A DNA stretch of 64,000 bases from Cyanidioschyzon merolae (taxonomy: Eukaryota), in the NCBI GenBank assembly GCA_000091205.1, contig AP006490.2, one strand, 5' to 3'. Both the position numbers and the translations under genes were made by a program. Under the pieces are notes generated by a model. The model searched no databases. It was not told the DNA's origin and worked only from the letters and a program-made list of their open reading frames with translations. Shown one piece after another: positions 49,843 to 59,417 of the stretch; positions within the stretch are counted from its first letter, which is position 1; each line of letters begins with the position of its first letter.

Positions 49843-52152
49843 ATGCTCTTTGCACATGAGGCAACCTGTCGAAGCGCGTCGCAGATGCACACAGCCGGAT
49901 CGACATATTACCGGAAGCGCTATTCCGCTTCGTGGCGCGAGAACAGAGCGGCTGGTTTGTGGACGTGGCTGCGGATGTCGGTGGACCCCCAGACGCGAGT
50001 TTTGGTCGATGAGCTTCATAGACTGGGATTTGTTGTAGAACCAGCTGCTGTTTACTTGCTGCAGGAACGATTTTGCTCTGATCTTGAGCTTAGTCTTCTG
50101 GATGAAGAGGAACGAGTCGCGGCACTAGCAAGCCTTGTGCAGCGCTTGCGGGAAACTGCACTCGAGCAGGGAACGCGAACAATATCCACGGAGGCAGTGG
50201 AGCGAACACTGAAACTGGGTTCAGGCGGCAGTTTCGGAACGGATCGGAGTGGGACTGGCGCTGGCATAACGAAACACGGGCGCGTGAACGTGGCGAACGG
50301 GTGGAAGCTCCATGTTACCCGAGAGTTGAAGGAAACAGACTTGCTGCAACTGCCGCCCATAGCCAAACGCAGGGAAGCGCTAGCGTTTCGATATCAGACG
50401 CTTTACAAAGATCTTGAGCGTTGTTTGCAGATATCTGCTCTACGTAGGGAAGGTACAACACAGGAGAGTCCCTGGCCAAGGCAAGTCGTTCCTGTTGGCG
50501 TTTTGCGATCTGCCCGTGCGAGCGAAAACCGCCTGCAGATCGTGATGGGCATGCTCAGTGCTCAGGGTGTGGATGAGTGGTTGCTCGAAGATCCGACTGG
50601 ATCGATCGCTCTTCGGCTACATGGAGAACGTTCTGCTGTGGACGATTACCGGCTCTGTGGCACGAAATCGTGCTCGCTCGTGTGCGCAGGATGTATGCTC
50701 GTTGTAATTGGCGTTTACGACCCGATAGGAGATGCGATTGTCGTGCGCGAGCTTCGACAACCTCCGCTTTGTCCTGACTGGAGCATGAAGTTGCTGCCGC
50801 TGGAAGAGACTCCGGAATCATCAGCACCGCTGAGCCATGCGGGCGACCTGAGATTCACTGGGACCACAACTCTGGATGCTTCGCTGGACGCGCACGCCAG
50901 CGATTGCTCGGTCAGGTTGCCTCACCCAGAGTCACCGCAGGTAATGGATGCTTCTCGCGGGAATCTATTGGCCGCGAAGGATTTTCCTGAGGTACATGGC
51001 GACGTATCCGTGGCGCAGGAATTACAAGGCAATGTATCTCTTCCTCGAGCGGATCCTGAGAGCGAGGTCGAATCCCTGGACGACCCGGACGGCGAACTGC
51101 ATATTCTGTTTGCGGCCGATTTGGCCCTTGATGACAGCACCTCGTACGCAAAGTGGCGAAAGCTGCTCAGGGAACTCTACCTACCGAACGAAGCCTCAAC
51201 GATGCAGGGGACGAGCACACTGCCTCCGACCGATGAAGCGGCCGAACACCCTTCCAGGCCAGAGGCCTCCTTGCCTCACTGCATTTTTGTCCTTTGCGGG
51301 CCATTCCTAGGTTCAAAATGCATGTCGTGGCCGCCAGTCACGGAGCCTGCCCATGAAGATGCACCAACGGCTGGTGCTGTGCAAGGCGAGTCCTCGCTCA
51401 CGCCGAACGAGCAAGCGTTGCTTCTGGCTTTGCGACGTTTTGGGAAGATGCTGGCAGCGTTCCGAGCCCCATTGCGGTCGTCTGGCTCTGAGTTCATTCT
51501 GATCCCAGCGGAGCGGGATATGGATTGCTTTGGTGAGGTGTTGCCGCGGCCGCCTCTGTCGAACCTCTTTGTGGAAACGTTGAGAGTGCATAGTGGACTC
51601 CGAACTGAGCAGATCCGCACGCTCTCGGATCCAGCACGATTCGATGTGCTGCGGGGAGAGCGCTGCCGCTACAGCGTCCTCGTCCACGCAACGGAACGCC
51701 TGTGTGAACGTCTAGCTGCAGAAGCACTTCCATGGCCAGCGGAACGTGAGCAGCGCAACTACGCTGCGGATATGCAGCAGTTCGCTTCCAATGTTTTCCG
51801 CACGATTCTTCACCAGCGTCATGTCGCCCCGTTGCCTGTATACAAGCAGCCTATATTTTGGACGTTTGACCGGCAATATTTATGGACGCTCACAGACCCT
51901 AACCGTTTTGTTGATTTTCTCGTGCTCGCCGACAATACGCTTCCGTTGTGCATGGAGACATATGCAGTTGGCGGCTTCGCATCTCTCGCGGGCGGTCTCG
52001 AACCCAGCATGGTTCTCTGCATTGCCCCGGGAAGCTTTTCACGTGATGGAACTGCAGTATGGATTCGGCTTACTGGTCAGGCGCAGCAGCGTATTCAGCC
52101 ACGATCGCTGCATCTCGTTGCAGGGCAACAAGCAGAGCCGAGCGACCTGTAG
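49843..52152 (+). CDS. hypothetical large protein (no recognised domain)
   Basis: Long uninterrupted ORF; track start 49816 is TTG; first ATG 49843, true start may be later (MSVDPQT). Confidence 0.3.
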   Translation: MLFAHEATCRSASQMHTAGSTYYRKRYSASWRENRAAGLWTWLRMSVDPQTRVLVDELHRLGFVVEPAAVYLLQERFCSDLELSLLDEEERVAALASLVQRLRETALEQGTRTISTEAVERTLKLGSGGSFGTDRSGTGAGITKHGRVNVANGWKLHVTRELKETDLLQLPPIAKRREALAFRYQTLYKDLERCLQISALRREGTTQESPWPRQVVPVGVLRSARASENRLQIVMGMLSAQGVDEWLLEDPTGSIALRLHGERSAVDDYRLCGTKSCSLVCAGCMLVVIGVYDPIGDAIVVRELRQPPLCPDWSMKLLPLEETPESSAPLSHAGDLRFTGTTTLDASLDAHASDCSVRLPHPESPQVMDASRGNLLAAKDFPEVHGDVSVAQELQGNVSLPRADPESEVESLDDPDGELHILFAADLALDDSTSYAKWRKLLRELYLPNEASTMQGTSTLPPTDEAAEHPSRPEASLPHCIFVLCGPFLGSKCMSWPPVTEPAHEDAPTAGAVQGESSLTPNEQALLLALRRFGKMLAAFRAPLRSSGSEFILIPAERDMDCFGEVLPRPPLSNLFVETLRVHSGLRTEQIRTLSDPARFDVLRGERCRYSVLVHATERLCERLAAEALPWPAEREQRNYAADMQQFASNVFRTILHQRHVAPLPVYKQPIFWTFDRQYLWTLTDPNRFVDFLVLADNTLPLCMETYAVGGFASLAGGLEPSMVLCIAPGSFSRDGTAVWIRLTGQAQQRIQPRSLHLVAGQQAEPSDL

Positions 52153-52810
52153 GACGTTCCCGGCAAACGGTCCTGAACTGCAAGATGCAACGCATCAACG
52201 ACGAGGCGGCGTTGAGCGCGCCAGCTCGGTTGGCGGAATAATCTGTCAAAGAGAGGTTGCTGCACTGGTCGGGCGCATGCATTTGCGCGATGATCTCTGA
52301 TGATAAACATTTTGTTCGGCGAAGCGTACGGAATACAAGTTTCCTGACGATGATTAGGGGAGCGAAAATTTCGCTACTGCATGGTTCATACAGCTGAGAC
52401 CCAGCATGGTCACCATTCAATACTTGTTTGCAGCATACCCATGTTGATCGTGGCATGCAGCAGGCTTTCATTACCGAAGCTGACTTTTCAACATACGAGT
52501 AGCCGCCCAAAAGTGACAGGTAGTCCCAGCAGCACGATGCTACGGAGCTCGTTGAGGATGCACTGCGAGCAAACCGCCCAGCAGCGCTCTTTTGCACGTA
52601 CCGTAACTTGCAGGCGTATGCGATGACCAAAGTGATTTGGATGGCGTGCGTTGTTGCCTGACAAGAAGCTCGACTGTTCACGGAGGCGTCGCAGACCCGT
52701 CGTCGTTCACAAGATGTATGCACACGTACGAGCACAGTGTCCATCGCTATTCGATTTCTACGCATGCTGCTGAACAGGAATGCATGCATCCGAGCACACG
52801 CATCGATTCG

Positions 52811-52882
<72 letters not shown>
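52811..52882. repeat. (TGCG)18 microsatellite
   Basis: Perfect tetranucleotide run in intergenic DNA. Confidence 0.95.
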
Positions 52883-52883
<1 letters not shown>

Positions 52884-53335
52884 GGTTTCAAGCAGACTGC
52901 GACTTTTGCACGAACGACGAGTGAAGGTCGTTGTCGCATATGCTGTAAGCGTGTCTGCACGGTTCGGGAGTGGAATGCTGACAGACGCAGATTTATTGCG
53001 CTTAACGTTGCGGTTAGGTTTCTTCGTCTGGATCTGCGTCGTTCTTTACGTTTTTCTCGCGGTACCTCTTCCGTCAAAGCAAACAAGCGAGGCCAAGGGT
53101 CGTGCAGTGACTCTCGCAAGTGCGGCAGGCCCAGCGAGCTCGCGAGACAAGTCTGGGCGGCGCTGACGCTCCTGTTCTAGGTGAACGGTTACAGCATACT
53201 GAGCTAACGCTTGCTCTTTGATATACTAGGACGGATCAGTACTGTGTCCGAGGCGGTGCGGAGATAGGTCGACGAGTATCTGCAGACTCGCGTATCCACC
53301 GGAATACTCCTGAGACGGCCACAAAATATTTCGTC

Positions 53336-54004
53336 ATGGTCTATCTGCGTTCGTTGAAAGTCCCAAGAGGATACGCGGCGGCCTTTATGGTGGCTGGACC
53401 ATACGCAAGGTCGGGTTGCTGCTCCCGTGGGGCGTGCGTGCATCGTCGAACAACCGTACGAGGGTGCGAGACCAGTAGCGCGCCGCTGGCGCCTCGCGTT
53501 GCTGTATCCTCTGTGGTCTGGCAGCTGCCGGAGGCGGCCGCGCAGGCGTTTCAGGAGCGCAACTGGCAGGACTGTGCTTCTATTCTCGTGGAGACTCCCG
53601 TTCAGACTGCACAGTGCTTGTTAGTACAGCGCACGAAAGAGCCGGCAGCGAACCTTTGGTCTTTTCCCGGTGGCAGTTTGCACTTCGGCGAGTCAGTGCT
53701 CGACGGCATAGCTCGTGAGCTCTTTGAAGAGACTGGCCTCGCCCGGTCTGACGTCATGCTTGGATCAGAATACGAGGTGTATGAGTACATTGCACGTGAA
53801 TGGCACTACATTATCTTGACTGCAGTTGGGCTGGCGCGCCACGGTGTAGAGCCTGTTGCCGGTGATGATGCTCGCCGAGCTTGCTGGGTGCCGCTTCGTG
53901 ATCTGATGAATCCGAACTTTCCGAGTACAACACGCTGTCTGGAAACAGCGAGGAAGCTTTGGGACCGACTAAGAGTACATTCTACTTCAGCCCGACATAG
54001 TTAA
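53336..54004 (+). CDS. Nudix hydrolase with N-terminal presequence
   Basis: Nudix box 'GGSLHFGESVLDGIARELFEETGLA'; ATG at 53336. Confidence 0.7.
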   Translation: MVYLRSLKVPRGYAAAFMVAGPYARSGCCSRGACVHRRTTVRGCETSSAPLAPRVAVSSVVWQLPEAAAQAFQERNWQDCASILVETPVQTAQCLLVQRTKEPAANLWSFPGGSLHFGESVLDGIARELFEETGLARSDVMLGSEYEVYEYIAREWHYIILTAVGLARHGVEPVAGDDARRACWVPLRDLMNPNFPSTTRCLETARKLWDRLRVHSTSARHS

Positions 54005-54686
54005 TTGGGGGAAGGTGCGTGGGATCGTCGAGACGTTTCGCTGGAAAGCGCCCATTTGGTCTGTATGAGGCGTTTGCGCACTGCTCGTCCGCCCATAACT
54101 CCGCCATGGCTTTCTCCAGTGAATCCTTTGACGCCAGCCTCCAAGCGCGGCCAAGTTAGAACGGGATAGCCTCCTGGTCCAATGGACAGGATTATCGCGG
54201 GACAATGCTCGACTGTCTCCGTGTTGTTCGTTTGCAGGAATGTAGGTGATCGAGGCAGACACCCAGTTGTGCTCGCTCTATTGGAAACAGAGGTTTCGAT
54301 TACGTGCTCGGTTTCGCTCTGTCCAGAGCTGCGAAAGATCCACGACGGCCGCGGCTGCTATGGTGCGTACAGTGTCTGCGATCGTCAGAATACGTAAAAA
54401 TCAGGGTGCGGAAAGATTGCTGGAAACGTTTTCTGGCGTCATAGCGCCTATGAGACCCCTTTTCCCTGGGAGTCGAGCGACAAGCGGTGGCGCGTTCCCT
54501 TGGCTGTCTATCGGACAAGGAAGATAGGTTGAAAGCAAGTCTCGAGCATGACGGTAAAGGGGACGTATATGTTCAAGTGCTCAAGAGCTTTCTCGGCTGT
54601 AAGGCTATAGCACTATTGCCACGTGCACGGTGGACTTTTAGCGGGTAGTGAAAGTAGGTGAAGCGACTTGGCTTCTGACAAAAGGT

Positions 54687-54821
54687 TGCCATCGCGCGGG
54701 ATCGAACCGCGGACCTTTGCATCGCTCGACCGATTGCTGACGATCGTTGCGAGTGCCTTCAGTGCAACGCTTTCGGGCGAGCATCGAATGATGACTCCTC
54801 TCCCTGCTGAGCTACAATGGC
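54687..54821 (-). tRNA. tRNA-Phe(GAA) gene interrupted by two introns (28 nt in D-arm near pos 24/25, plus coordinates 54770-54797; 34 nt at canonical 37/38, plus 54723-54756)
   Basis: Spliced product is 73 nt: GCCATTG-TA-GCTCAGCAGGGAGAGC-G-TTGCA-CTGAAGA-TGCAA-AGGTC-CGCGG-TTCGATC-CCGCG-CGATGGC-A; close to eukaryotic tRNA-Phe; A box TAGCTCAGCAGGG, B box GGTTCGATCC, downstream TTTT. Confidence 0.75.
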
Positions 54822-55353
54822 AACATTCATGTGATATCGATTGCATAAATTGGATATAAAGGCTTGTTGGCGTCCGCTCCCACGCGCAGTTGGACAATCA
54901 TGACTTTAGCGTATATTTATGTATTAAACGGACACACTTCTCTGCATTCCGTTTTGCGGCTCTCCGCATGGGTGTCGATCACGGCTAGGCGAGCCCATTC
55001 CGAGCAACTAGGCGTCAATCGCTGGCGCTGCGACCCACGGACTGATAGGACGCGCTTTAGACAGAATGGCCCATTGTCTTGCTCCTAGCGCGCTGCGTGC
55101 CGCGTCTCCATACGCGTCGGACTCGTCGCGGCAACGTTGCGAAGACCCGTCGCCTCCGCGGCTGTTCGTTTTGTACACGGCAGAGCGGCGACTCGGTCCT
55201 GGACCATGCGCGTGATGCCTGTCGTCGCCCCGCAAAACGGCTGTCTCTCTAAGCGCTACACGTTTGCGCATTGTTTGCGTGTCGGCATGACGCGCAACTG
55301 GCAGAACAGCGCCGTATAGCACTCGCACAGACGCGAGCGTGGACAGAAAAGCA

Positions 55354-55422
55354 GGTACAGGCATAGGTACAGGCATAGGTACAGGCATAGGTACAGGCAT
55401 AGGTACAGGCATAGGTACAGGT
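55354..55422. repeat. 12-bp tandem repeat (GGTACAGGCATA) x about 5.7
   Basis: Direct observation; right palindrome arm has only about 1.5 units (59098-59122, inverted). Confidence 0.9.
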
Positions 55423-55620
55423 GTGGGCTCCAGGTCGGCCCCGGAGAAGGAAGCGTGTGCAAGTACCATGGCGGCTAAAAATCGTTCGCAAAATATCACT
55501 TTATAGGCATCGAGGCTACGCATCAACGCACGGACGATCACTCACTCGCTTTCCATAGGTCGTATCCTTCCTCCATTGCATCCGGTCTTCCTTACATCAA
55601 GGCTTTCACCGCTCTCCGCT

Positions 55621-55914
55621 TTAGTTCCCCTGGAACTTTTCCTTGGTGGCATCTGCTGCGTGCTCTATTCCTTTCTTCGCAGACTGACCGGTTTCCTTCA
55701 GGTGATCCACTGCATCACCCGCCTTGTCTTGAGCTTTCTCCTGTGCGGACTTTTGCCCGGTGAGATCACGGAACTTGTCAGAGATCGTCTCCTTCGCCGA
55801 TGAAAACGCACCAGTGACAGACTCTTTCGCAGAATCCAAAGCGCCACCCGCTTTCTTCTCCGTATCTTTGAGAGCCGACTGTGCTGAGCTTGTATCTTGA
55901 GCTCCGGAAGACAT
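55621..55914 (-). CDS. small hydrophilic LEA/CsbD-like protein (97 aa)
   Basis: 'MSSGAQDTSSAQSALKDTEKKAGGALDSAKESVTGAFSSAKETISDKFRDLTGQKSAQEKAQDKAGDAVDHLKETGQSAKKGIEHAADATKEKFQGN'; paralog at 58606-58899. Confidence 0.5.
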   Translation of the reverse strand: MSSGAQDTSSAQSALKDTEKKAGGALDSAKESVTGAFSSAKETISDKFRDLTGQKSAQEKAQDKAGDAVDHLKETGQSAKKGIEHAADATKEKFQGN

Positions 55915-56019
55915 ATCACAATTTATAATGCTTTCGTAAACTCGAAAAATGCATATGCAAATGAGGTACCACGGCGCGCGCGGTGGCCGCACAGCCACAA
56001 ACACAGGAGATTTTACCGC

Positions 56020-57366
56020 AACAGGACCCGCACGCACCGCAGTTTGAAAGTCGAACGACGGCGGTGTACAGTAGCGGCGAACGATGCGCCCTAGACGACG
56101 TCTCCAACTGAGGTGCAGACGCCTCCCGGCCTTTTTGGACCGGCCACCCGCTACTGCTTCCAACTTTTTCTCAAATAATTCCACTTTGGGAGGTTGTCCA
56201 ATAACGTTCTCTCGTGGCAACTCTGGAGGTCTGCTCTCGAGCACCGCACATGTCGTTATCTTGATAGCGGCGTTAAAGTCTCGGTTCACAAACTCCATAC
56301 GTTCCGTGCCATCATTGGTTGTACTTACTAATGCAAGCAGTCCCCGAACTTTCGCCCTCCTTTCCATTTGCGCTTCCGTCAGCGGTCCGTACTTTGCTAT
56401 TCCCTCAGGGCTGCTCCGACACTTTTCTATCTCGACACTTTGAAGTGTACACCCCAGTTCATGGTGTGTATACGATGTTCGGAACTCATCTATCGATATC
56501 GTAACAAAACGTCGTGCACACTCTATGTACGTTCTCGTCGTTAGAGCTGGTGTACACCTTTTTTGGGTCTTCCAGCGCCCTGATCCGTACGCTACTACCA
56601 GCCTTTGGCTCTCGTCCTCCTTCAGGGCGTTCAACTCATTGAAAAAGTTCGCGAGCACGCGCTGCCTCCCACCGTATAGACTCATTCGCAGACGAGCCCA
56701 CCGGGGCTTTGTATACTCCTCCCGTAGCGCCTCCCGATGAGGAACACGAACTTCCATGACTTTCCGAGAAGCTTGAAAGTGTGCTCCGCGGCCCGTCACC
56801 TCGCTCAAAGCTTCCAGGTGATCCTTCATTCCTGCATCCCATGCAGGAATTTTCTTCCTCGCATTCATGACTCCCGATTCTCGATAGTATCTTGCTCTCG
56901 GGAACCTCAAAAGACGCATGTCTTTCTGACGCAAGGAACCGTCAGTACTATCTTCCGCACGCTACGCTGCGCGATGGTTATGATACTCGTATTCTCAGGG
57001 TCCGCGCCAACGACAAAGCCGTTATCTTGCACTTTCTGCACCGCAGGATCCGCCTCCTTCTCATCTTCATGCTGCACCACGTCAACGACAAAGTCGTTAT
57101 CCTGCACTTTCTGCGTCGCGGTACCCGCCTCCTTCTCATCTTCTTGCTGCGCCACGTCAACGACAAAGTAGTTATCCTGCACTTCCTGTGTGGCAGGATC
57201 CGCCTCTTTGTTTTCTGCATCCTTCGTCACGGGCGGAGCCGAGGGCGGAACTGGCCGATCTGTCTTCAACCGCCGATAGTGTACACACAAGGCTACTCCA
57301 TCGGTTTCGATCATCCCAGTGAACAACTTTTGTTTGCTGACTTTGAGCCGTTCGAAACTGAAGATA
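56020..57366 (-). pseudogene. Fanzor/TnpB-like nuclease element, copy B (5'-truncated; 3' boundary approximate)
   Basis: Encodes from '[22 protein letters not shown]' through RuvC-I 'VVGADPENTSIITIA', 'LVVAYGSGRWK', Zn finger and 'FVNRDFNAAIKI'; no stop before downstream LEA-like ORF. Confidence 0.55.
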
Positions 57367-58570
57367 TTCTTCGTTGGGATGATCGAAACCGATGGAGCAG
57401 CCTTGTGTGTACACTATCGGCGGTTTCAGGCGGATCATCCAGCTCCGTCTTCGACTTCGCCGGGACGGAGCATGAAGCGAAGAAAGAGGCGGATCGTGCC
57501 ACGCAGAAAGTGCAGGATAAAGAATTTCCCATTGACGCTACGAAGCATGAAGATGAGATGGAGGCGGATACCGCGACGCAGGAGATGCAGGATAACGACT
57601 TTGTCGTTGGCGCGGACCCTTGGAACACGAATATCATTGGCATGGCTGTACCCAAGCGTGCGGAAGATGGTATCAACGACAGCCCATTTCAGAGAGACAT
57701 GCGTCTGTTGAGATTCTCGAGAGCAAGATACTACCTAGAATTGGGAATCATGAATGCAAGGAAGGAAATTGAGGCATGGAATGCGGAAGTGAAAGAGCAT
57801 CAGGAAGCTTTGAGCGAGGTGACAAGCCGAGGAGCGGGCTTTCAAGCTTTTCTGAAATTCATGGAAGTTCGCATTGCGCACTGGGATGCATTGTGGGAGG
57901 AGTATACAAAGCCCCGGTGGGCTCGTTTGCAAATGAATCTATACGTTGGGAAGCAGCGGGCCTTCGCGAGTTTTTTCAATCAGTTGAGTGCCCTGAAGGA
58001 GGATGAAAATCAGAGGCTCGTAGTAGCGTATAGAGCAGGGCGCTGGGCGCCCAAGAAAGGCACTACGCCAGCTCCAACGACGGGGGCGTACAAGGAGTGC
58101 GCACGGCGTTTCGTCGCGATACCGATAGATGAGTTCCGTTCGTCCTATACACTCCATGAACTGGGGTGTACACTTCAGAGAGTGGAGATGGAAAAGTGCC
58201 AACGGAGCCCTGAGGAAATAGCAAAGTACGGACCTCTGACGGAAGAGCAAATGGAAAGGAGGGCGAAACTTCGGGGGCTACTTGCATTAGTAAGTACAAC
58301 CAGTGATGGCAAGGAACGTATGGAGTTTTTAAACCGAGACTTTAACGTCGCTATCAATTTAAGGAGATGTGCGGTGCTGGAGACGAGACCTCCAGAGCTG
58401 ACAAGAGAGAACTTTGTTGGACAACCGCCCAAAGTAGAACTATATGAGAAAATATGGAATCAGTAGTAGGTGGCCGGTCCAAAAAGGCTGGGAGGCGTCT
58501 GCACGTCAGTGGGAGATGTTTCGTCTAGGGCGCGTGCTTCGCCACTATTGTACACCGTTGGCGTCGTTCG
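57366..58570 (+). pseudogene. Fanzor/TnpB-like nuclease element, copy C (5'-truncated; 3' boundary approximate)
   Basis: '[17 protein letters not shown]' ... 'VVGADPWNTNIIGMA' ... 'LVVAYRAGRWA' ... 'EFLNRDFNVAINLR'; stop at 58466. Confidence 0.55.
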
Positions 58571-58605
58571 AGTGCGAAAGGTGTTCCCTTAGCGTCGCAG
58601 TGACA

Positions 58606-58899
58606 ATGTCTTCTGGGTCGCAGGATACCTCTTCTGGTCAATCAGTTCTCAAAGATGCCGAGGCGAAGGTAGGCAGTGCATGGGAATCCACGAAGGAGTC
58701 AGTTTCTGAAGCGTTCACTTCGGCCAAGGAGACTATCTCTGACAAGTATCGTGATCTCACCGGCCAAAAGTCCGCGCAGGAGAAAGCCCAAGACAAGGCG
58801 AGCGAGGCGGTGGATCACCTAAAGGAAACCGGTCAGTCCGCGAAGGAGAGTTTGCAGCACGCTGCAGATGCAGCCTCGGAAAAGTTAAAGGACGGCTAA
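58606..58899 (+). CDS. small hydrophilic LEA/CsbD-like protein (97 aa)
   Basis: ATG at 58606; about 80% identical to 55621-55914 product. Confidence 0.5.
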   Translation: MSSGSQDTSSGQSVLKDAEAKVGSAWESTKESVSEAFTSAKETISDKYRDLTGQKSAQEKAQDKASEAVDHLKETGQSAKESLQHAADAASEKLKDG

Positions 58900-59417
58900 C
58901 GGAGAGAGCGTAGAAAGACTTGAGTGAAGGATGCACGGAAGTAAAACAGGAAGGATACGACCTATGGACAGCGAGTGAGTGATCGTCCGTGCGTTGATGC
59001 GTAGCCTCGATGCCTATAAAGTGATGTTTTGCGAACGATTTTTAGCCGCCATGGTACTTGCACACGCGTCCCGCTCCGGGGCCGACCCGCAGCCCACACC
59101 TGTACCTATGCCTGTACCTGCTTTCCTGTCCACGCCCGCGTCTGTGTGAGTGCTATACGGCGCTGTTCTGCCAGTTGCGCGTCATGCCGACACCCAAACA
59201 ATGCGCAAACGTATAGCGCTTATAGAGAGATAGTTGTTCCGCGGGGCGAGCGCCCGCAATCGCAGTCGAGGGCACAATCGACTCGATCGCTGCCGCACGG
59301 GGCGCGACGCATCGCACGCTGTGGTGCAGCGCAGCGCGTACCGGCCTCTGGAAGCAAGTTGTGCGCAGCAGCGATCTGAGGCCTTTATCCATCGGTGCAG
59401 CGTCTCGCGCGGTGCAC

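Follow-up and report, generated by a model that had tools for sequence, protein, structure and literature searches.

Does the minus strand of the window (the whole 64,000-nt stretch of DNA analysed here) hold a tRNA gene that standard searches overlook, and if so, where do its introns lie? [quoted passage not shown] The evidence described below indicates that the locus is almost certainly the nuclear gene for cytosolic tRNA-Phe(GAA) of Cyanidioschyzon merolae 10D, which belongs to the published "highly disrupted" tRNA genes. The proposal stands with respect to the gene, its product and its two introns, as judged from the ARAGORN call on the spliced sequence, four matching published primers, one of which spans a splice junction, and the report of Soma et al. 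(2013). The D-arm intron, for its part, is better placed two nucleotides upstream of where it had been drawn.

Read on the minus strand from 54821 to 54687, the locus consists of GCCATTGTAGCTCAGCAGGGAGAG, a 28-nt segment, CGTTGCACTGAAG, a 34-nt segment and ATGCAAAGGTCCGCGGTTCGATCCCGCGCGATGGCA, and is followed by ACCTTTTGT. With the cuts originally chosen, the two inserted segments are GAGTCATCATTCGATGCTCGCCCGAAAG and GCACTCGCAACGATCGTCAGCAATCGGTCGAGCG; their removal (54797..54770 and 54756..54723) leaves a 73-nt sequence in which ARAGORN recognizes tRNA-Phe(GAA) with a clean cloverleaf. All stems (7, 4, 5 and 5 bp) are paired, and the single U·G pair lies in the 7-bp acceptor stem. The D arm reads GCUC/AGCAGGGA/GAGC, the 7-nt anticodon loop CUGAAGA (with U33, the anticodon GAA and a purine at 37), the 5-nt variable loop AGGUC and the T arm CGCGG/UUCGAUC/CCGCG, and the discriminator is A; ARAGORN thus returned the acceptor stem, the arms and loops and the discriminator just as they had been described from the sequence. 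U8, A14, G18, G19, G20, G53, U54, U55, C56, A58 and A73 are all present. The identity set of PheRS, known from yeast, comprises G20, G34-A36 and A73, and all tRNA-Phe identity positions are intact in the spliced sequence. The spliced product agrees with yeast tRNA-Phe at 49 of 73 positions; in the same comparison the anticodon loop, T loop and D stem are the same, and the D loop shows two differences. Folded unspliced, the 135-mer does not adopt a cloverleaf at minimum energy, and its stability is ordinary relative to shuffled sequences (z = -0.9). The features of the locus are collected in Table 1.

Table 1. Parts of the tRNA-Phe(GAA) locus, with window coordinates unless stated otherwise, and their comparison with the Cyanidiococcus ortholog.
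Feature	Coordinates	Strand	Basis	Comparison with Cyanidiococcus
Whole tRNA-Phe(GAA) gene, 135 nt, three exons and two introns	54687..54821	-	ARAGORN on spliced 73-mer; primers F5'-1 and F3'-1 match both ends exactly	
Exon 1, tRNA positions 1-22 (acceptor 5' strand, U8, A9, D-stem 5' strand, D loop, G22)	54800..54821	-	Equals primer F5'-1	22/22 identical
Intron 1, 28 nt, favoured at 22/23 in the D stem	54772..54799	-	BHB register, Cyanidiococcus ortholog, archaeal parallels	28 vs 27 nt; 64% identity
Exon 2, tRNA positions 23-37, AGCGUUGCACUGAAG, anticodon GAA	54757..54771	-	ARAGORN, BHB pairing	15/15 identical
Intron 2, 34 nt, canonical 37/38, internal 6-bp hairpin	54723..54756	-	Primer F3'-2 junction, C32 pairing	34 vs 31 nt; 53% identity
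Exon 3, tRNA positions 38-73 (anticodon-stem 3' strand, variable loop, T arm, acceptor 3' strand, A73)	54687..54722	-	ARAGORN, primer match	35/36 identical; the one change gives a U51·G63 wobble
Upstream block CCTTTATATCCAATTTATGCAA, -41 to -20, probable Pol III promoter	54841..54862	-	Conservation	21/22 identical
TATA-like TTTATAT, -39 to -33, within the conserved block	54860..54854	-	Sequence	
TTTT run starting 4 nt after A73, probable Pol III terminator	54683..54680	-	Sequence	Kept
tRNA-Phe ortholog in Cyanidiococcus	about L001 11486..11356	-	Synteny and sequence	

Soma et al. (2013; Sci Rep 3:2321, PMC3728597) worked on this very gene, which is therefore already known. All four tRNA-Phe(GAA) primers of that study match as expected. 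Primer F5'-1 (22 nt) equals 54821..54800, exactly tRNA nucleotides 1-22; F5'-2 equals 54821..54796 and extends from exon 1 into intron 1 by AGGA; and F3'-1 equals 54687..54703 of the plus strand. Primer F3'-2 is absent from the genome, and its reverse complement corresponds to spliced positions 33-53, across the intron-2 junction TGAAG/ATGC. Because all four primers match, including the one that spans the spliced junction, the locus is not a chance assembly. [quoted passage not shown] There, the bulge-helix-bulge (BHB) motif of intron 1 is assigned to class hBHBh' (-11.1 kcal/mol) and that of intron 2 to class "no H", which lacks the central helix (+1.15 kcal/mol) (PMC3728597). The authors describe detection of the mature tRNA by northern analysis, as well as RT-PCR clones of the two-intron precursor, of an intermediate without intron 1 and of the mature tRNA; an intermediate lacking intron 2 alone was never found, from which they conclude that intron 1 leaves first (PMC3728597). 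Expression, both splice junctions and the order of intron removal are accordingly on record in that paper.

The host, which had been taken for a cyanidialean red alga, is identified as such by a neighbouring protein. Some 700 bp away from tRNA-Phe, the NUDIX ORF at 53336-54004 (+) is identical over 222 of 222 residues to BAM79773.1 / XP_005536059.1, titled [quoted passage not shown], and its nearest named relative is a Cyanidiococcus yangmingshanensis protein with 54% identity. The order DNA_pol_E_B, NUDIX and, on the opposite strand, tRNA-Phe is kept in C. yangmingshanensis (GCA_026122185.1, JANCYV010000013.1, locus L001). There, ARAGORN again reports tRNA-Phe(GAA) when the ortholog is spliced at the corresponding sites, and both intron positions are kept. 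The exons are identical at 72 of 73 positions, against 53-64% identity in the introns, which argues for purifying selection on the exons only. Within C. merolae-like environmental contigs (L002, L003, L006 and L007), the gene carries two substitutions, both intronic: at 54773, where 10D has A and the variants C, the change falls within the 3' bulge of intron 1, and at 54730, where 10D has G and the variants A, it turns a U·G into a U-A pair in the intron-2 hairpin. Both leave the intron structure preserved. It is a possibility that both intron positions predate the split between Cyanidioschyzon and Cyanidiococcus and have been held by selection on structure. A metagenome scan for further cyanidialean orthologs returned only 10D-identical copies and archaeal genes, with no Galdieria or Cyanidium homolog. 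As a separate observation, the contig L009 (1-2295, JGI 3300053659) matches window positions 52919-54779 at 99.5% and then continues into unrelated GC-rich DNA; the break at 54779/54780 falls inside intron 1, and the contig is without exon 1. Either a chimeric assembly or a genuine rearrangement may account for it. In addition, ARAGORN with introns allowed finds a tRNA-Ser(AGA) gene with a 42-nt intron about 7 kb from the Cyanidiococcus tRNA-Phe gene (L001 18443-18572, +).

The exact register of intron 1, which sits in the 3' strand of the D stem, can be approached through both genera. Since the 3' ends of exon 1 and of the intron are GAG and AAG, cuts at 22/23, 23/24 and 24/25 are equivalent in C. 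merolae and lead to one mature sequence. In Cyanidiococcus, the base after A23 is C, so that only 22/23 or 23/24 is possible. Pairing was assessed by the BHB geometry known from yeast pre-tRNA-Phe and archaeal BHB motifs, in which intron nucleotides -6 to -3 pair with the last four nucleotides of the exon before the 5' bulge and the 3-nt bulges are cut after their second nucleotide. Cut at 22/23, the C. merolae precursor forms three of the four central pairs, G18-G20 with pre-tRNA nucleotides C45-C47, and A17 faces G; the bulges read AG^A and AA^A, and C16-G24 and G15-C25 make up the outer helix. In Cyanidiococcus all four form (A17-U, G18-C, G19-C and G20-C); its bulges read AG^A and GA^A, and the outer helix is the same. 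Among shuffled introns, 1.5% reach four of four central pairs and 19% three of four. An exhaustive search of the 10D precursor for the strict hBHBh' motif (exactly 4 Watson-Crick or G·U pairs between two 3-nt bulges, with helices on either side, in both arrangements) detected none for intron 1 at any of the cuts leading to the tRNA. At the junctions where BHB motifs were expected, central pairing in 10D thus amounts to 3/4 for intron 1 at 22/23 and 2/4 for intron 2. Strict BHB arrangements do occur elsewhere in the precursor, at 40/99 (a cut after pre-tRNA nt 40, the exon resuming at nt 99), 41/98 and 13/60 and, for intron 2, at 64/96; these were rejected, as they lead to wrong products and their number is that expected by chance (3 vs 1.9 +/- 1.4 in shuffled sequences). 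One off-register strict arrangement pairs intron 1 with the end of intron 2.

Upstream of the gene, the sequence CCTTTATAT(C/T)CAATTTATGCAA occurs in both genera, identical at 21 of 22 positions, while the adjoining -19 to -1 has diverged. Downstream, the TTTT run claimed as a terminator is present, and ACTGTTTTG stands at the equivalent place in Cyanidiococcus. Intragenic A and B boxes had been claimed as well: compared with the A/B-box consensus, matching sequences do exist in the gene, and these coincide with conserved tRNA nucleotides and are uninformative on promoter use. According to the published text on tRNA transcription in C. merolae, most tRNA genes, among them permuted ones with inverted box order, are preceded within 50 bp by TATA-like elements, T-stretches lie downstream, and recognisable TFIIIC homologs are lacking (PMC3728597). 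The conserved upstream block is, as published, the likely promoter, and its pattern of conservation agrees with the published view of a TFIIIC-independent, upstream TATA-like promoter.

What standard tools make of the locus bears on two other accounts of its identity. ARAGORN in default mode reports no tRNA anywhere in the 64-kb window, Rfam at gathering threshold reports nothing in the window, and Rfam in E-value mode over 54400-55100 gives only noise (C/D-box and miRNA models on the plus strand with E >= 0.66, well below gathering scores). When one intron is allowed (ARAGORN -i), exactly one call is made over the whole window, a tRNA-Arg(TCG) at c[54684,54822], and it is this sole call that speaks for a tRNA-Arg gene with a single long, 57-nt anticodon-loop intron. 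Its cloverleaf is poor, however: the anticodon stem contains an A·C mismatch, the D loop has 11 nt and the variable region is irregular. Moreover, the two SNPs of the environmental variants change the call to Arg(CCG), and the Cyanidiococcus sequence gives Glu(TTC); on the two-intron reading all of these are Phe(GAA), and the published RT-PCR sequencing and cDNA junctions lead to a Phe product. The single-intron call is an artefact, and a tRNA-Arg at this locus is scarcely credible. A decayed tRNA pseudogene or an unused chance tRNA-like assembly would agree with the failure of standard tools to detect the gene and with a precursor fold without unusual stability; yet the published northern signal and spliced cDNAs (Soma et al., 2013), the contrast between exon and intron conservation across two genera and the intact identity positions make this account extremely improbable. 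A functional, two-intron tRNA-Phe(GAA) gene is the reading retained, and a T-arm scan of the window found only this gene, with no other hidden tRNA gene seen.

Granted such a gene, the cut of the D-arm intron and the mode of transcription could each differ from what is favoured here. A cut at 24/25 (54770-54797), as first proposed, or at 23/24 draws on the equivalence of the three cuts in C. merolae, and the text of Soma et al. (2013) on this gene says just "D-stem". Against this, the C after A23 in Cyanidiococcus means that a cut at 24/25 cannot give the GAGC strand of the D stem, which excludes it, and neither 23/24 nor 24/25 offers usable BHB pairing, as against four of four pairs (Cyanidiococcus) and three of four (C. 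merolae) at 22/23. Archaeal tRNA-Phe introns at 22/23, considered below, pair in the same way. The published exon-1 primer also stops at G22, and from this design the authors themselves appear to have placed the intron at 22/23. A register other than 22/23 is therefore quite improbable; the ortholog and the BHB pairing favour 22/23 (54799..54772), two nucleotides upstream of the original coordinates, with the product unchanged. Transcription through the intragenic boxes, as a TFIIIC-dependent type 2 promoter, instead of through the upstream TATA-like element would find both consensus matches in the gene; but these boxes are universally conserved tRNA nucleotides, so their presence is silent on promoter use, and the introns set them 62 nt further apart. 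The reported lack of TFIIIC homologs and the prevalence of upstream TATA-like elements (in the published text, PMC3728597) also speak against it, as does the conservation of -41 to -20 beside an unconserved -19 to -1. An intragenic promoter is thus unlikely, and the upstream block is the preferred candidate.

Intron 2 shows the features of a canonical eukaryotic 37/38 intron, namely its position, the 32:(-3) pair and a 3-nt bulge that contains the 3' splice site. The pair joins C32 to G(-3) of the intron, and the 3' bulge reads CG^A (10D) or AG^A (Cyanidiococcus); the anticodon stem is intact, and cuts at 36/37 and 37/38 are equivalent in product. Its central helix has two of four pairs in 10D and two to three of four across both species, and this small number fits the published "no H" class and removal in the second step. 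The hairpin within the intron consists of 6 bp in C. merolae (CGAUCG/CGGUCG) and of 7 bp in Cyanidiococcus (UGUUCGG/CCGAACU region), with wholly different sequence. On a structure-guided alignment of these two lineages, the change looks compensatory.

The DNA around the gene has features of its own. A palindrome of about 4 kb (55244-59228, centre near 57346), with arm segments 82-95% complementary, begins some 420 bp upstream of tRNA-Phe. Within it, two ORFs lie head to head, 55621-56934 (-) and 56892-58466 (+); they carry the TnpB/Fanzor-type RuvC motifs GADPW, IDEFR[TS]S and NRDFN[AV]AI and gave no match in Pfam or Protein Data Bank searches. A single Fanzor1 family, CMe-1A, has been described from C. 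merolae, numbering some 150 copies at roughly 80% identity to its consensus (Bao and Jurka, 2013), and the two ORFs are probably decayed CMe-1A copies. At the palindrome centre lie three tandem 75-nt repeats (57002-57226), 76-85% identical to the first copy. The mechanical ORFs 52070-53119 (-) and 55008-55541 (-) encode the short amino-acid repeats (THAR)n and (PMPV)n, which points to microsatellite-like DNA rather than genes.

From these elements a processing pathway can be proposed. RNA polymerase III would most likely transcribe the gene as a single precursor, from the TATA-like promoter to the TTTT run. The tRNA-splicing endonuclease, whose subunits at each intron would presumably be cmSen2, cmSen34 and cmSen54, would first cut out the 28-nt D-stem intron at 22/23. 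This intron would be recognized via a BHB fold in which, on the pairing favoured here, the GGG of the D loop pairs with CCC near the intron's 3' end; the pairing at 22/23 is compatible with such recognition. The 34-nt intron at 37/38 would be removed second; its central helix is weak, but it retains the C32-intron pair of the eukaryotic type together with a 3-nt bulge around the 3' splice site. Ligation, by whichever pathway presumably operates, end trimming and CCA addition would then give mature tRNA-Phe.

Ectopic and multiple introns in nuclear tRNA genes break the 37/38-only rule, under which the endonuclease measures its cut from the mature tRNA body, and they imply an endonuclease with archaeal-like, BHB-driven recognition. 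This point was made with this very gene in 2013, and for C. merolae the tRNA-Phe finding itself adds nothing new. What is newly added is minor, namely the conservation of both intron positions in Cyanidiococcus and the occurrence of archaeal metagenomic tRNA-Phe introns at the same 22/23 site. Together with the 22/23 register and the promoter footprint, these data should be useful for modelling substrate recognition by the C. merolae endonuclease. For annotation, the lesson is that ARAGORN in default mode and Rfam miss such genes and that the one-intron mode of ARAGORN miscalls them; the reader working from raw sequence recovered this gene correctly.

Compared with known systems, the nearest relative is the tRNA-Phe(GAA) of Soma et al. 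(2013) itself, which is the same gene and shares the two introns, the upstream TATA-like element and the downstream T-stretch; the one difference is that the strict geometry used here gives three of four central BHB pairs for intron 1, where the paper has hBHBh'. [quoted passage not shown] It differs, in the same descriptions, in having a third intron in the T loop and strict hBHBh' motifs throughout, and intron-dependent pseudouridylation is shown there for tRNA-Ile(UAU) and not for tRNA-Phe. The canonical eukaryotic 37/38 intron, e.g., that of yeast pre-tRNA-Phe, has the C32:G(-3) pair and the 3-nt bulge at the 3' splice site that are likewise found in C. merolae and Cyanidiococcus. Unlike the canonical case, intron 2 of C. 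merolae shares its precursor with a second intron that is removed first, and its motif, as classified in the published text, is without a central helix (+1.15 kcal/mol; PMC3728597).

The archaeal parallels come from the metagenome scan, which served to check the BHB geometry and whose query pattern required an insert after G22 in tRNA-Phe genes, i.e., an intron at 22/23. It returned three window-identical contigs and ten other distinct sequences, nine of which look like archaeal tRNA-Phe with an 11-40 nt insert at 22/23, the tenth (L018) being a different kind of sequence. Several of the archaeal-looking genes, among L010-L031, also contain an insert at 37/38 or in the T loop. In these contigs, the intron follows G22, at the same site as in C. 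merolae, and pairing is alike, with N17, G18, G19 and G20 facing CCC(A/G) at intron -6 to -3, 3-nt bulges and a 2-bp outer helix; the outer helix is found in all nine and four of four central pairs in six of them. Several of the archaeal 22/23 introns share the 3' end ...CCCGAA with C. merolae intron 1. They differ in their exons and promoters, which look archaeal on reading of the sequence, in their unrelated intron bodies and in an intron length that varies between 11 and 40 nt. [quoted passage not shown] The likeness is confined to the nucleotides that must pair with G18-G20, and the search pattern itself demanded 22/23; that the cyanidialean intron shares its origin with the archaeal ones, vertically or by transfer, and did not arise independently is very unlikely. 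Convergence offers the simplest explanation, since pairing with the invariant GGG calls for the shared 3' end.
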